Assembly: GCA_030693325.1 (NCBI GenBank)
Contig: JAUYAV010000011.1
Location: 109,603 to 173,602 of the forward strand
Origin: a bacterium
GTDB taxonomy: Bacteria > Patescibacteriota > Minisyncoccia > UBA6257 > MFKM01
Reading direction: 5' to 3'
Length of the DNA stretch: 64,000 nucleotides
The translations under genes were made by a program, and so were the position numbers. Of the stretch, positions 1,767 through 59,385 are shown in pieces (position 1 is the stretch's first letter; every line of letters starts with the position of its first letter). The notes under the pieces are model-generated. The model saw nothing but the letters and a program-made list of their open reading frames with translations. It searched no databases and was not told where the DNA came from.

Positions 1767-2390
1767 TTATAACGACTGGATAATTGTTTTAATTTTTTCA
1801 TTGTCCGGCCAATATTTAAGAATAATTTCTCCTATTTCTTTTGTTTTTTCTTTATCCCCCGCCATTTGATAAATATTAAAAAGTCCTTCAAGGAAAATAA
1901 AACGATTGGAACTATTTTCTAAACCCAATTTTAGCATATCAACGCTTTTTTGAAGATAAACATTACTGTTTAATTTCTGGGCGGCTAATTCGTAAAGTCG
2001 GGCAAAGGCATAGAGATTCTGGCTATAGCCGAATCCTTTGCCTGCTTTAAGAATCGGCTCCATTGTATTTTCGGCCTGCTTGGTTAAAATTTCAATTATA
2101 TTTTTATCGGTCTGCTGGCTTATTACATTAGCCAGAATATTTAAATATTGAGAAGAAATCTCATCTTGGCCGATGGGTGAATAAAAATTTAAAGCCGACG
2201 CGAAAGCCGTATCAAAATCCTGGATGGAGCGAATTTTTCCCGATTGAAGGTCAGACATAGCTTTGATAAAAAGCTGGCTTTTTCTCAAGGGCAAATAAGA
2301 GCCAAAGTACATTACTGTGACGATCAGTAAAGATAATGTTGTTGCTATTATGAGTTTGTATGATTTAAACATAAATGTAATAATTTTCAA
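1767..2390 (-). CDS. Hypothetical membrane-anchored protein with helical repeats (TPR-like)
   Basis: N-terminal TM segment followed by an alpha-helical repeat region; no recognised catalytic motif. Confidence 0.4.
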   Translation of the reverse strand: MKIITFMFKSYKLIIATTLSLLIVTVMYFGSYLPLRKSQLFIKAMSDLQSGKIRSIQDFDTAFASALNFYSPIGQDEISSQYLNILANVISQQTDKNIIEILTKQAENTMEPILKAGKGFGYSQNLYAFARLYELAAQKLNSNVYLQKSVDMLKLGLENSSNRFIFLEGLFNIYQMAGDKEKTKEIGEIILKYWPDNEKIKTIIQSL

Positions 2391-16908: not shown

Positions 16909-16996
16909 GGAAGGGTGCAGGAGCGGTTTAACTGGCGATCCTGGAAAGATCGTGTACCGCAAGGTACCGCGAGTTCGAATCTCGCCCCTTCCGCCA
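16909..16996 (+). tRNA. tRNA-Ser (anticodon GGA), class II with long variable arm, CCA encoded
   Basis: GGAAGGG-UG-CAG-GAGCGGUUUAA-CUG-G-CGAUC-CUGGAAA-GAUCG-[UGUACCGCAAGGUACC]-GCGAG-UUCGAAU-CUCGC-CCCUUCC-G-CCA. It closely parallels the E. coli tRNA-Ser architecture. The track ORF 16779..17036 (-) overlapping it is spurious. Confidence 0.9.
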
Positions 16997-17010: not shown

Positions 17011-17149
17011 TTGGCCCCGTTAGAAGTCTTTGGCAAAAAAATTTTCTATGAAAATTTTTTTGCTTCGCAATAGCGGGCTATAACTAAGAATAAAGCCTGT
17101 CTAAAATTAGCTTTATGCCACATAAAATCAGACTTCTAACGGGGTTGAC
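17011..17149. mobile_element. MITE-like internally deleted derivative of the GIY-YIG mini-element (15-bp terminal inverted repeats ccccgttagaagtct / agacttctaacgggg)
   Basis: Both ends are homologous to the ends of the 40615..40910 element (ctttggcRaaaaaRaatttt at the left; ccacataa..cag..ttctaacgggg at the right), with about 95 nt non-coding between. It sits 15 nt after the tRNA-Ser 3' end. Its right end ggggTTGACA supplies a -35 hexamer about 18 nt upstream of TAGTAT for the downstream gene. Confidence 0.6.
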
Positions 17150-39540: not shown

Positions 39541-40566
39541 CTACGCCTCCTTAATTAAAGTATAACGATTATCGGGCAATTTCTCAAAGTAACGCTTATT
39601 CGAAAGATTCAAGAGAATGGTGTTTTCGCGAAGAAACCGTTCTTTTCGGACCAAGGCAACAATTTTTTGAGCATCAAGAGACCCGTGTTTTTTTAGAATC
39701 CGGATCAAAACCTCCCGTGCTGTTCCCGGCTCATAACCCTGTTCTTTCAAACCGTAAATTCCCCGCCCCACCAAAACAAAACGATTGTCTTTAATTAACT
39801 CATTATGAACCGTCTGGGGGTAGGCCTTTTTGTGGTCAAAAGCCAAATTATTGATTTTTTGGGTAAGTTCCCTAAAATGCAGGGGCTGGCTGTGTTTTTT
39901 GATAACCAAATATGCCTTGTCGCTGATGACTCTGGGATTGATTTCCGGCCAATGACTCAAGCCGAAATCTCCGAAAACATTAACATCAAAATTTTTTGAT
40001 AAGGACAAATAATTAACGGCGGATAAATCTTCAAAACGAGCCAAATGAATTTTTTTGTCAATTATTTTTTCCGGACCGAATTTTTCGCAAAAATCCGCAA
40101 CTTCTCTGATTTTTTTCAAAGCTTTATTTTTGATTTCTTCCTGAAGATACCAAAAATCGTGCATAGTTTCATCCGCTTCCGAAAACTTCGGCTCGCCATT
40201 CAAAGTAAAAATAAATCGCAATTTGCGCTCAAAAAATTTCGGCCAATTTTCTTTAGCGGTCAGATGTTTTAATTCCTGGATTAAAAGGTCATCGCGTTTC
40301 AAACCGCCGGCGGAAACCAAATGGTTTTTCACCGGTTCTATTAAATTGCTCACTTCCTCTTTGTTAAGATAACTTTTTAATTTCTCCATCCCCTGGTTTT
40401 CGATTTGTCTCACTCTTTCGCGGGTGATGTTAAAACTATCCCCGATTTCCTGGAGAGTTTTTCCTTCGCCGTCTCTCAAACCGAATCTTTCAATCAAAAT
40501 TTCCCGTTGGCGTTTTTCCAAACGGGCTAAAAGATTGTTTGTAAAATTGTCTAATTCTTTAACCAT
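39541..40566 (-). CDS. Sigma-70 region-4-like HTH fused to C-terminal HARE-HTH-like domain (transcription-associated)
   Basis: N-terminus LEKRQREILIERFGL..GEGKTLQEIGDSFNITRERVRQIENQGMEKLK resembles sigma70_r4. C-terminus HFRELTQKIN...VHNELIKDNRFVLVGRGIYGL is HARE-HTH-like. Confidence 0.5.
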   Translation of the reverse strand: MVKELDNFTNNLLARLEKRQREILIERFGLRDGEGKTLQEIGDSFNITRERVRQIENQGMEKLKSYLNKEEVSNLIEPVKNHLVSAGGLKRDDLLIQELKHLTAKENWPKFFERKLRFIFTLNGEPKFSEADETMHDFWYLQEEIKNKALKKIREVADFCEKFGPEKIIDKKIHLARFEDLSAVNYLSLSKNFDVNVFGDFGLSHWPEINPRVISDKAYLVIKKHSQPLHFRELTQKINNLAFDHKKAYPQTVHNELIKDNRFVLVGRGIYGLKEQGYEPGTAREVLIRILKKHGSLDAQKIVALVRKERFLRENTILLNLSNKRYFEKLPDNRYTLIKEA

Positions 40567-40614
40567 ATTAAATAATTTACTACTATGGTAAAGAATACCA
40601 CTTCTAAAAAAAAA

Positions 40615-40910
40615 GTCAACCCCGTTAGAAACCTTTGGCGAAAAAGAATTTTAGGCGATTTTTTAAGTATCTTCTACCCATTCCCGATTTAAGATATTTT
40701 TCTCTGGCTCGAGCATCTTGTTTATTTAAAGAAACCTCACAATAAATAAGCTTCCAGGGTATACCATATTTTGTAGATTTATTCTTGCCTGAATTATGCC
40801 TTAAAATTCTTTTTCGCAAATCCTTGGTTGAGCCAATATACCAATGCCCCTTTTGATTTTGTAAGACATAGACGTACCACATAAGCAGGTTTCTAACGGG
40901 GTCAACCCCG
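40615..40910. mobile_element. Compact GIY-YIG mini-element (about 300 bp) bounded by terminal inverted repeats gtcaaccccgttagaaacctttggc / ggtttctaacggggtcaaccccg
   Basis: 13-bp perfect TIR core ccccgttagaaac/gtttctaacgggg. The GIY-YIG ORF fills the element and its stop codon lies inside the left IR. The right IR overlaps the stop of the upstream CaCA gene. The deleted derivative is at 17011..17149. Confidence 0.6.
40625..40882 (-). CDS. GIY-YIG nuclease family protein (about 85 aa; the track ORF extends to 40933 through the right IR)
   Basis: VYVLQNQKGHWYIGSTKDLRKRILRHN...ARAREKYLKS matches the GIY-YIG motif pattern (GIY...YIG...R...E). Confidence 0.7.
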   Translation of the reverse strand: MWYVYVLQNQKGHWYIGSTKDLRKRILRHNSGKNKSTKYGIPWKLIYCEVSLNKQDARAREKYLKSGMGRRYLKNRLKFFFAKGF

Positions 40911-41867
40911 TAAAAATAATGCGGCCAAAACAAAAGCGATATAAATCAAAATAAGAAAAAAGGCCTCTCTTTTAGTGATTTGGCGGTCAGTGCGGACAAA
41001 AAAGAAGAAAAAGAGAGCGGAAATCATCACAAAAAATCCGGCAACCGCAAGGGGCGCAAAATTCAAAATTTTAATTGGAGAAATCAAAGCCACTGTTCCC
41101 AAAATTAGAGTTGCCGGCACTATCACCGCTCCCATCAAATCTCCCAAAATCATCCAGGTCTCGTCTCTTTTGGCCGAAACAACGGCAAAATAAATTTCGG
41201 GCAAGGCGCTGCCAAAACCGGTAATTAAAAGACCAATTAAAACTAAGGGCACCTTAAAAGTTAAAGCAAAAAATTGGGCCGAGGCCACAATCCCCTGAGC
41301 CGAAATCACCAAAAGAATTATTCCTAAAACTAATTTCCCTATATCTTTAAAAAAAGTTTTTAATTCTTTAACGAAAGGTTTTTTATGTTCATCATAAATT
41401 TTAGTGAATCTTTCTTTTTTGCTAAAAAGCCAGAAGAGATAAAAAACAAAAAAGGCAATCAGTAATAGCCCATCTATCCTTGAGAGTTCGCCGTCAAAAA
41501 TTAAAAACAAAGGCAAAAGCGCCGCGGCGATGGTGAAAATTGAAGTGGTTTGCACCGTTCGGCTTTCGGCCGGAATGGATTTTCCTTTAGCAAACAAAAC
41601 CGCCAAAGCCACGGCCAAAGTCAAAGCAATTATATTATTCCCGACAACATCGCCGAAAGAGAGTTGTGGGGTCCCTTTTAAAGCCGAGGTCACCCCGATA
41701 AAAAGGTTGGGTAAGGAAGCGGCAAAAGCCATCACGAAAAAGGCGACGACAAATTCCCGCCAACCCAGGAATCTGGCCATTCTCATTAATCCTCCAACAA
41801 CCCACTCACCGGAGAAATAAAGCAAAACGCAGCAAATCGCAAAAATTAAAATAAAAAACCAAATCAT
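40902..41867 (-). CDS. Na+/Ca2+ exchanger family (CaCA) membrane protein
   Basis: Two alpha-repeat motifs GDVVGNNIIALTLAVAL and GFGSALPEIYFAVVSAK. Confidence 0.75.
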   Translation of the reverse strand: MIWFFILIFAICCVLLYFSGEWVVGGLMRMARFLGWREFVVAFFVMAFAASLPNLFIGVTSALKGTPQLSFGDVVGNNIIALTLAVALAVLFAKGKSIPAESRTVQTTSIFTIAAALLPLFLIFDGELSRIDGLLLIAFFVFYLFWLFSKKERFTKIYDEHKKPFVKELKTFFKDIGKLVLGIILLVISAQGIVASAQFFALTFKVPLVLIGLLITGFGSALPEIYFAVVSAKRDETWMILGDLMGAVIVPATLILGTVALISPIKILNFAPLAVAGFFVMISALFFFFFVRTDRQITKREAFFLILIYIAFVLAALFLRG

Positions 41868-52386: not shown

Positions 52387-52448
52387 CTTGATTAAATTTT
52401 ATTTCTATTGATTTGCCTTTCAAATTTTATTTCTATAAAATGAAGTCA

Positions 52449-52750
52449 TTCCGACGTAGCTCAGTGGTAGAGCGACTCCCTGTAAATTTAAAATTGCAGC
52501 TTTCCCGAGTAATCGGGATTGAAAAACGAGGTGAATTCGGGGAAACCCTATAAAAGGGCAATCCCGAGCCAAGCCCCGACTTAACGTCGAGGAAGGTGTA
52601 GAGACTATCCCGAAAGGGAGTACTCCAAATAAAATTGGGGGAAGCGCCTCGCACCCTCTAAAAAAGAGGGTGATGATATAGTCCGTCCCCAATGGAAACT
52701 TTGGGATAAACGTAAGGAGACGGTCGTAGGTTCGAATCCTACCGTCGGAG
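52449..52750 (+). tRNA. tRNA-Asn (anticodon GUU) interrupted by a group I intron between anticodon-loop positions 35 and 36
   Basis: Exons: UCCGACG-UA-GCUC-AGUGGUA-GAGC-G-ACUCC-CUGU | UAA-GGAGA-CGGUC-GUAGG-UUCGAAU-CCUAC-CGUCGGA-G. The spliced anticodon loop CUGUUAA is the canonical tRNA-Asn loop. The 5' exon ends in U and can pair with an intron GCAG guide; the intron ends in G. Track ORFs 52420..52692 and 52433..52654 are spurious. Confidence 0.8.
52483..52712 (+). ncRNA. Group I self-splicing intron (230 nt, no ORF) within tRNA-Asn
   Basis: Conserved core elements: P-like AAAUUGCAGC, R-like GUGUAGAGACUAUCC (P7 5' strand), S-like GAUGAUAUAGUCCGUCC (P7 3' strand / P9.0). Size and anticodon-loop location resemble the compact bacterial tRNA introns (Anabaena tRNA-Leu, Azoarcus tRNA-Ile). 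Confidence 0.8.
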
Positions 52751-52754
52751 CAAA

Positions 52755-59328: not shown

Positions 59329-59344
59329 TATTAGGATTGTAATA

Positions 59345-59385
59345 AAAGCAAAGACGCCCACCGTGGGCGTCTTTGCTTTTATACT
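59345..59385. terminator. Bidirectional rho-independent terminator
   Basis: aaaagcaaagacgcccaccgtgggcgtctttgctttt. Confidence 0.7.

Follow-up and report, generated by a model that had tools for sequence, protein, structure and literature searches.

How does a gene for a small stand-alone nuclease come to lie between two inverted repeats, in DNA that also carries a second pair of such repeats with no gene between them? This question is raised by a 64,000-nucleotide (nt) stretch of a Patescibacteriota genome (assembly GCA_030693325.1, contig JAUYAV010000011.1, positions 109,603 to 173,602; hereafter the window, numbered from its first base), in which the gene encodes a GIY-YIG protein of 85 amino acids (aa). 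A first-pass annotation had read the arrangement as a transposon-like unit accompanied by an internally deleted derivative resembling a MITE (miniature inverted-repeat transposable element). Comparison with other genomes bears that reading out, through a conserved bracket, target duplications, identical copies in different places and one site seen empty, with a short element and with a full one. We conclude that positions 40620–40901 probably hold an intact member of a family of very small mobile elements that is widespread, that 17015–17144 is its non-autonomous, MITE-like copy, and that the nuclease would itself drive the movement.

The full-length copy lies on the minus strand and measures 282 bp from the first to the last base of its inverted termini, ends that were set by family-wide comparison. 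Its open reading frame (ORF), of 85 aa plus stop (40625–40882, minus strand), runs from an ATG at 40880–40882 to a TAA at 40625–40627, and the protein has a single Pfam domain, GIY-YIG PF01541, over residues 1–66 (E=1.5e-15; 57.7 bits against a cutoff of 22.6). Both the ORF and the position of its stop inside one repeat had been correctly noted in the first-pass annotation. The perfect inverted repeat, described there as 13 bp, exists but is longer: an inverted-repeat search of the window gave 16 nt, at 40619–40634 and 40887–40902. The arm 5′ of the ORF (L arm, 40887–40902, minus strand) reads ACCCCGTTAGAAACCT in gene orientation and ends 4 nt before the ATG; its CCC GTT AGA is in frame with that ATG and reads P-V-R. 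The opposite arm (R arm, 40619–40634, minus strand) reads AGGTTTCTAACGGGGT in gene orientation and holds the last codons of the ORF together with the TAA. The exact sequence TTCTAACGGGG occurs at four sites in the window, which are the four arms of the two copies.

The nuclease is intact and conserved and has many relatives. All of 36 homologues have Y3, Y5, Y15, G17, R25, H29, E49, R60 and E61, the same positions are conserved in at least 90% of a separate set of 59 translated sequences, and most nuclease ORFs of the family are intact. There are 1765 indexed relatives, the best 120 of which are 79–92% identical and come from many different lineages of the candidate phyla radiation (CPR); an exhaustive search returned 850 clusters (50% identity) at E≤1e-10. 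A tblastn search of plasmids with the nuclease gave only two weak UPF0213-like matches, and viral contigs yielded only four distant relatives, one with variant arms; there is no evidence for viruses as a vector. On the IMG/VR contig L221, a distant relative (~1440–1765; 51% identity) has the arms ACCCCGTAGGATTT and AAATCCAACGGGGT, followed by GTGAA. A groundwater contig (L220) carries a Y1_Tnp (IS200-like) transposase gene at 1725–2489 on the minus strand, and the window-type GIY-YIG gene of that contig is about 1 kb away, which is probably a coincidence.

Across a comparison set of 80 genome loci encoding relatives of the nuclease, the same bracket, with core sequences CCCGTTAGA and TCTAACGGG, was found at 67, and three further loci show it with a nested insertion. 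CCCGTTAGA lies about 17–24 nt before the ATG (farther upstream in Bacteroidota), while TCTAACGGG lies on or adjoins the stop codon. The bracketed genes belong to CPR groups, Bacteroidota, Planctomycetota, Thermodesulfobacteriota and others, and the family termini are inverted repeats of about 15–20 nt with the core xCCCGTTAGA...TCTAACGGGx′. No gene other than GIY-YIG was found between the arms in the loci compared. The first-pass annotation had raised the possibility of repeats away from the nuclease; the arms were seen only with the GIY-YIG gene family or with short derivatives and were almost never isolated. Among the Bacteroidota, the cultured isolate Brumimicrobium mesophilum JCM 14063 carries a full-length copy (L058 2964–3257; NZ_PVSS01000006.1) in which 34 nt separate the left arm from the ATG. 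The copies from Bacteroidota have a common left flank, GACCCRCA, and a flanking repeat of only 2 nt.

This breadth bears directly on whether the repeats could be ordinary regulatory palindromes (a terminator, operator or promoter element) that flank a small gene by chance. A promoter-like TTGACT-16-TATTCT does follow the right junction in the window. The arms are 250 nt apart, however, no terminator-like site was found, the −35 element is already present in an empty version of the site (described below), and the same bracket recurs across phyla beside unrelated genes. We regard this explanation as refuted by the cross-genome data and give it almost no weight.

Junction sequences point to insertion. 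We compared 96 pairs of left and right arms and found a perfect 4-nt direct repeat abutting xCCCG and CGGGx′ in 56, where 10.0 were expected from shuffled partners, so that the target-site duplications that the first-pass annotation had proposed to look for are present. At the true register 19 different tetranucleotides occur, and in shifted registers the repeat appears in one pair at most. Short pairs, with interiors of 15–125 nt, number 27, one from the window and 26 from 20 of the 80 loci; many of those in other genomes also have a perfect 4-nt duplication. In one metagenome-assembled genome (MAG), three copies (L052, L057 and L068) are 99.6–100% identical in unrelated flanks, and their identity stops at ATGAA/TCCCG...CGGGA/TGAA, where the slashes mark the element ends. 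Contexts retrieved for P0019 (25 contigs of 71 indexed blocks) represent one locus in many samples and have no bearing on mobility.

GIY-YIG is the classical fold of homing endonucleases, and the gene might accordingly be a free-standing homing endonuclease gene copied into one cognate empty allele by recombination, a possibility to which a weak match with TIGR01453, the group I intron endonuclease model, also leans. That match lies below the cutoff (29.4 bits versus 56.05), the 85-aa protein lacks a DNA-binding domain, and homing makes no target duplications. Copies of the element are scattered over dozens of unrelated genes and intergenic sites, whose flanks have no homology in common. With insertion sites as diverse as these, homing is highly improbable and in effect refuted.

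The history of the window site itself was examined with the CaCA protein encoded upstream as an anchor in metagenome contigs. The site between the CaCA gene and a sigma-like gene was found in three states: empty in contig L202, with a short element in L204 and with the full element in the window, which provides the presence–absence comparison suggested by the first-pass annotation. In L202 (CaCA 86% identical), 45 nt separate the CaCA stop from the orthologous sigma-like gene and contain a single TTGACT-17-TAAAGT. In L204 (CaCA 73% identical), an inverted-repeat element of about 100 nt sits at the same TTGA, with TTGA on both of its flanks. Since L202 has a single TTGACT, the TTGA of the −35 hexamer at the 40-kb site is host sequence that was duplicated on insertion. 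The suggestion that the element supplies a −35 hexamer, TTGAC(A/T), is therefore not upheld at 40 kb, and we assume by analogy that the 17-kb copy should be read likewise.

In the window, the upstream copy of the duplication is TCAA on the plus strand, or TTGA in gene orientation, at 40902–40905. It contains the TGA stop (40902–40904) of the upstream neighbour, a CaCA Na/Ca exchanger gene (Na_Ca_ex), and the overlap of this stop with the 16-nt repeat, noted in the first-pass annotation, amounts to one base. The downstream copy (40616–40619) forms part of the −35 TTGACT (40614–40619, minus strand) of the downstream neighbour, a sigma-70-region-4/HARE-HTH gene at 39541–40566, whose promoter-like TTGACT-16-TATTCT is built on it. 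Insertion into the TTGA of this hexamer regenerated the hexamer through the duplication.

Immediately upstream, at 40906–40916 (minus strand), a stretch reading TTTTTACGGGG in gene orientation encodes the CaCA C terminus (L-R-G-stop) and matches TTCTAACGGGG at 9 of 11 positions. The window and L204 have this stretch, both reading TT(A/T)CGGGG to the left of TTGA, and L202 lacks it. This CGGGG stretch resembles the right arm and may be either the relic of an older copy or a target that mimics an element end; if it is a relic, the present copy would have inserted against its end. No other GIY-YIG coding remnants were found in the window.

The short copy at 17015–17144 (minus strand, 130 bp) is smaller than 300 bp, has no ORF and shares its termini with the full copy, as befits a MITE. 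The first-pass annotation recognized the pair but placed it at 17011–17149 around about 95 nt of non-coding DNA; its arms form a perfect 15-nt inverted repeat (17015–17029 and 17130–17144) with 100 nt between them. It lies next to the tRNA-Ser(GGA) gene (16909–16996, plus strand), as described, although it begins 18 nt after that gene rather than 15. The reported homology to both inner ends of the full copy also holds: about 19 nt plus ATGTGG are in common at the 5′ end, and 24 of 27 nt are alike at the 3′ end, where both copies have TTTTTGCCAAAG..TTCTAACGGGG, while the interior is not convincingly alignable. A subterminal hairpin at 17033–17063 (minus strand), with a 14-bp stem and a 3-nt loop, is the counterpart of an inner stem in the full copy (see below), and the single-stranded DNA (ssDNA) fold of the copy has a z score of −7.37. 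Its flanks, TTGG at 17011–17014 and TTGA at 17145–17148, agree at three of four bases, which is consistent with a decayed duplication.

Taken by the general criteria for an insertion sequence (IS), the family has terminal inverted repeats, a fixed 4-nt duplication, copies in varied contexts, and occupied and empty sites. It has no recognized transposase (DDE, DEDD, HUH, serine or tyrosine), the only ORF being GIY-YIG.

The duplicated targets are not random. Their reconstructed consensus is A/TGAA (slash before the duplicated bases), with T in 50, G in 35, A in 30 and A in 45 of 56 sites at the four successive positions, and the base before the duplication is A in 35 of 56. About 24 of the 56 sites have ATGAA as their left flank (P about 1e-50). 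At 41 of the 96 right junctions, the last base of the element and the duplicated TG spell ATG or GTG; a long ORF opens there in 35 of these 41, whereas the remaining two frames give 1 and 14. Host genes that start at the right end include those for phosphoglycerate kinase (PGK), CTP synthase, DnaJ, class V FBPase, a Mur ligase and RuvC. The Pfam profiles of their products begin at residue 2–4, except that of the Mur ligase, where the first match is an internal domain, and the rebuilt starts are therefore natural N termini. TGAA outnumbers its complement TTCA among the targets by 25 to 1, reflecting either selected co-orientation with the hijacked host gene or an asymmetric reaction.

A second class of targets has GGGx′ directly before the duplication (10 of 56 sites, P<1e-10) and so mimics the right end of the element. 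Seven tRNA-Pro genes begin 4 nt inside the right end, their first five bases, CGGGx, coming from the element terminus; the first nine bases of such genes (5′ end CGGGGTGTAG) are an example of an end-mimic target. The insertion in the window, at TTACGGGG/TTGA, falls into this class. Elements also land on one another. In L010 (2877–3001), L012 (2868–3001) and L038 (2898–3001), a short element lies inside the ATGTGG start of a full-length nuclease ORF, and its terminal A with the duplicated TG restores the nuclease ATG. In L026 (764–1019), two tandem short elements have one CTTG repeat in common, with another GGGG before them, which suggests repeated insertion against existing element ends.

These patterns outline how insertion proceeds. 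A 4-bp target is duplicated, preferably at A/TGAA, as found at gene starts of the form ATG-AAx, or at end-mimic sites (GGGx′ plus 4 nt). The last base of the element with the duplicated TG then remakes an ATG or GTG, and its last five bases a tRNA 5′ end, so that the interrupted gene stays intact. On start codons, the host ATG and ribosome-binding site would translate the nuclease as a form extended by MNPVR. Of 25 full-length cases, 14 have the surviving left-hand ATG of ATGAA in the reading frame of the nuclease, yielding MNPVR-extended proteins, which accounts for the frequent 93-aa forms in databases. The nuclease ends either at the TAA of the arm, with the host start 4 nt further on, or at a TGA that overlaps this start as ATGA, both classic layouts of translational coupling; re-initiation of the host gene from either position would presumably be coupled to translation of the nuclease.

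The two arms evolve together. We aligned 59 distinct full-length elements, counted 15 arm pairs and compared the result with 500 shuffles. Watson–Crick pairing holds in 97.1% of cells, and both sides have changed at nine arm pairs, the outermost being C-G in 34 elements, T-A in 19 and G-C in 4. None of the 500 shuffles reached the observed covariation, which collapses when the register is slid, and G-T pairs are almost absent, no more frequent than mismatches of other kinds. Such strict Watson–Crick covariation suggests that the ends pair in ssDNA or that one end is copied from the other; the arms are not self-complementary.

Directly internal to the R arm lies one strand of a further stem. 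In the window, a 19-nt inverted repeat (95%) joins 40802–40820 (5′ arm, minus strand), which holds the codons D-L-R-K-R-I-L, with 40635–40653 (3′ arm, minus strand), which holds L-K-F-F-F-A-K. A perfect complement of at least 11 nt occurs here in 47 of 59 elements, the shuffle mean being 6.6, and compensatory variants are found (GCGAAAAAGAATTTCAAGC, GGAAGCGCTTTAAT and GGAAACGCTTGAGC). Subfamily B has an inner stem of another sequence and register (GGAAACGCTTTAA), and a single-register count, which gives 74.7% paired, is therefore superseded by the per-sequence analysis. Synonymous sites are frozen in the inner-stem segments while neighbouring codons vary freely. In the predicted ssDNA fold of the full copy, the outer and inner stems both form, 3 nt apart at the right end (z=−3.85), and tight hairpins are also present in the short elements of L006, L010, L012 and L026.

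The stems might instead act at the RNA level, as a panhandle between the 5′ and 3′ ends of the mRNA that controls the nuclease and the downstream gene through stability or translation. The transcript includes both arms as well as the inner stem, and the layout around host starts suggests translational coupling. Yet an RNA-only structure would fit the arm covariation less well, G-U being no commoner than other mismatches, and it leaves target duplications, empty sites and ORF-less copies in either orientation unexplained. We reject an RNA-only structure on these grounds and consider an RNA-level role very unlikely as the primary explanation; it may coexist with mobility but is not the whole explanation.

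Returning to a mobile element moved by its own enzyme, the nuclease may recognize a single-stranded stem formed by both arms together with the inner hairpin, and may cut at the stem base and at look-alike targets, by analogy with the Ssn nucleases discussed below. Host repair or ligation would finish the move. That the gene is a passive passenger is unlikely, because its reading frame, its stop codon and the inner stem are interlocked with the ends.

The same interlocking weighs on the proposal that the inverted repeats are those of a MITE or IS family which an unrelated transposase, for example of the DDE type, mobilizes in trans, with the GIY-YIG gene as a passenger. The proposal has some appeal, as DDE insertion sequences are known to make 4-bp duplications and to use TNNA-like targets, and short copies without an ORF need a mover in trans. 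It does not sit well with an L arm in frame with the gene, a stop codon in the R arm and an inner stem made of two coding segments, nor with an association that extends across phyla, in which protein subfamily and arm variant change together and no other gene was found between the arms in the loci compared. We judge movement by an unrelated transposase improbable.

The closest described parallel is the Ssn family, stand-alone GIY-YIG proteins of about 94 aa (cd10448) whose genes are flanked by NTS/SRM hairpin repeats (Chenal et al., Nat Commun 2025, PMC11893778). Ssn proteins bind their own flanking hairpins and cut only ssDNA, even when the hairpin halves are on separate oligonucleotides (PMC11893778). 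The authors called NTS-ssnA-NTS IS-like and likened it to REP/RAYT, without reporting transposition, duplication or an empty site (PMC11893778). The first-pass annotation was not aware of small GIY-YIG proteins described as cargo of such units; in this respect the idea has some precedent.

Both systems comprise a single-domain GIY-YIG protein of about 85–105 aa whose gene is flanked on both sides by inverted, stem-forming repeats. Our Ssn comparison genes were NTS-flanked genes from viral contigs, found by an NTS-pattern scan (L135 7826–8137 and five others); N. meningitidis SsnA was not among them. Against these, the GIY-YIG cores align at profile level (hhalign 97.7%, E=2e-12, 27% identity over 67 columns), while BLASTP gave no alignment of the window protein to the L135 Ssn and the C-terminal thirds are unrelated. 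In tblastn of the L135 Ssn against family loci, window-type genes reached E values of 1e-7 or worse, the criterion of the published study being E<1e-10. The published SRM pattern, HGTCWYN(0-2)YYVSBRHN(0-5)WNVSBRGN(0-2)RNCYNB, had no match in the window and four in 423 kb of related loci, whereas a control NTS matched. Each NTS is a self-contained hairpin with hundreds of solitary copies, whereas the arms described here pair with each other over the intervening gene and are confined to element ends. Ssn has not been reported to show target duplications, empty sites or MITE-like derivatives, nor to target start codons or tRNA genes. Ssn and the window family match UPF0213 structures about equally, and the window family also reaches SLX1. 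By these sequence comparisons with viral-contig Ssn genes, the element family is a sister of Ssn rather than a member. In a Liptonbacteria MAG (L043), two genes (2063–2326, plus strand; 4771–4544, minus strand) match the Ssn probe better than window-type genes do, the first at 45% identity over residues 9–97 (E=3e-22). They lie within 1–2 kb of a window-type element, so both families coexist in CPR genomes.

This kinship raises the alternative that the window locus is a domesticated Ssn-like nuclease-and-repeat system, in which the repeats are binding and cleavage sites for a host function, for example the restriction of incoming ssDNA, and the gene has lost its mobility. Ssn genes, flanked by their cognate repeats, modulate natural transformation (PMC11893778), and the profile alignment makes the window family a remote homologue of NTS-flanked Ssn proteins. 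A domesticated system would not lead one to expect repeats that are almost never solitary but paired around a gene or a short derivative, 4-nt duplications, identical copies in varied contexts and an empty orthologous site; nor does it agree with the low copy number (four arms in 64 kb) and an SRM pattern without a match. We consider it unlikely.

Other systems share parts of the design. Like REP/RAYT (REPtrons) and IS200/IS605, the family has a small gene bracketed by inverted palindromic repeats, short relatives without an ORF, stems that are likely recognized in ssDNA and subterminal hairpins beside the cleavage sites, a geometry also found with Ssn nucleases. The enzymes there are HUH Y1 transposases rather than GIY-YIG proteins, each REP is itself a hairpin whereas the arms here are not self-complementary, and IS200/IS605 elements have no terminal inverted repeats and cause no target duplication. 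Classical insertion sequences and MITEs, such as Correia elements and Rickettsia palindromic elements, offer the terminal inverted repeats, the short duplication, identical copies in varied contexts, ORF-less miniatures and insertions that spare host gene function. The smallest known autonomous IS is about 700 bp, so that the 282-bp element is less than half that size, and to our knowledge its hydrolytic nuclease fold is used by no recognized IS family. I-TevI and Seg homing endonucleases have the same catalytic fold in a selfish-element setting but differ in having a DNA-binding domain, one target gene, spread by recombination, and neither inverted repeats nor target duplication.

Structurally, the closest solved relatives are UPF0213/YhbQ and prokaryotic Slx1-like proteins (PDB 1zg2 and 1ywl), with which the nuclease shares a minimal domain without the C-terminal Asn motif (profile match E=1.4e-10 to 1zg2; 2.6e-4 to 1.3e-3 for SLX1). 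A 2006 survey of the superfamily described prokaryotic stand-alone Slx1-like proteins as vertically inherited and housekeeping-like (PMC1564403), and flanking repeats or mobility are unreported for that group. The genes that one groundwater study lists as transferred from Patescibacteria include one for a GIY-YIG protein (PMC12455944). Our full-text searches of the literature brought up no account of a GIY-YIG element in prokaryotes that has terminal inverted repeats, a target duplication or MITEs.

Several considerations weigh against a nuclease-driven mobile element. We know of no GIY-YIG enzyme that carries out strand transfer; the fold hydrolyses DNA, and a transposon with this nuclease alone would therefore need host functions. 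Some DDE transposases, too, typically produce 4-bp duplications biased towards TNNA-like sequences. The 96 pairs behind the junction statistics are not all independent: orthologous pairs are among them, and metagenome-assembled genomes are the source of most. The window itself holds one full and one short copy, and the flanks of the latter match at only three of four bases. At the orthologous site, the sequence to the left of TTGA is AAAGGAT in L202 (TAATAAAAGGAT) and TACGGGG in the window, so the two are not a clean insertion or excision pair. The start-codon pattern could reflect the survival of harmless insertions rather than enzyme specificity. Finally, the authors of the Ssn study interpret their system as having a host function, the control of transformation, and not as transposing (PMC11893778).

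With one mismatch allowed, TTCTAACGGGG has 5 matches in the 64 kb, against 1.16 expected. The first-pass annotation had linked the arms through a ttctaaYgt motif to repeats R1 and R2, but this motif has 5 matches against 1.24 expected and no repeat family was found at 57.4–59.7 kb; the link is unsupported. An Rfam search of the whole window at gathering thresholds gave no match at the 40-kb or 17-kb locus and returned only a group I intron and a tRNA. The intron (52480–52705, plus strand; 83.4 bits, E=1e-19) lies inside an apparent tRNA gene (tccgacgtagctcagtggtagagcg...ggttcgaatcctaccgtcggagca), with exons at about 52446–52479 and 52706–52752, that ARAGORN missed. At 59342–59382, ATAAAAGCAAAGACGCCCAC and GTGGGCGTCTTTGCTTTTAT form a perfect 20-nt hairpin whose loop is 1 nt long; it is unrelated to the element arms.

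For units made up of a stand-alone GIY-YIG nuclease and its cognate flanking repeats, clear transposon signatures are seen here for the first time. More tentatively, and with rather less confidence than we place in mobility, the element of about 280 bp may be the smallest autonomous DNA transposon and the founder of an IS class with an 85-aa GIY-YIG nuclease, acting on a single-stranded end stem, as its sole protein. The element would hide at start codons and tRNA-Pro 5′ ends that it regenerates, would be translated from the ribosome-binding site of the host gene and would return the ribosome by translational coupling. If the nuclease does drive its own movement, it would add a new catalytic class to the movers of bacterial DNA and roughly halve the size limit for autonomy. 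It would also give the Ssn nuclease-and-repeat systems, on whose mobile ancestry their authors only speculated, a concrete evolutionary origin. The many natural pairs of a small nuclease and a DNA stem may serve as sequence- or structure-specific tools, as has been proposed for Ssn. For the CPR, the consequences extend to gene calls, including 93-aa versus 85-aa forms of the nuclease, GTG starts and tRNA calls. The gene-preserving targeting strategy is unusual: to land on ATGAA or a tRNA 5′ end and rebuild it from the element's own terminus amounts to a near-harmless parasitism that has been little documented.

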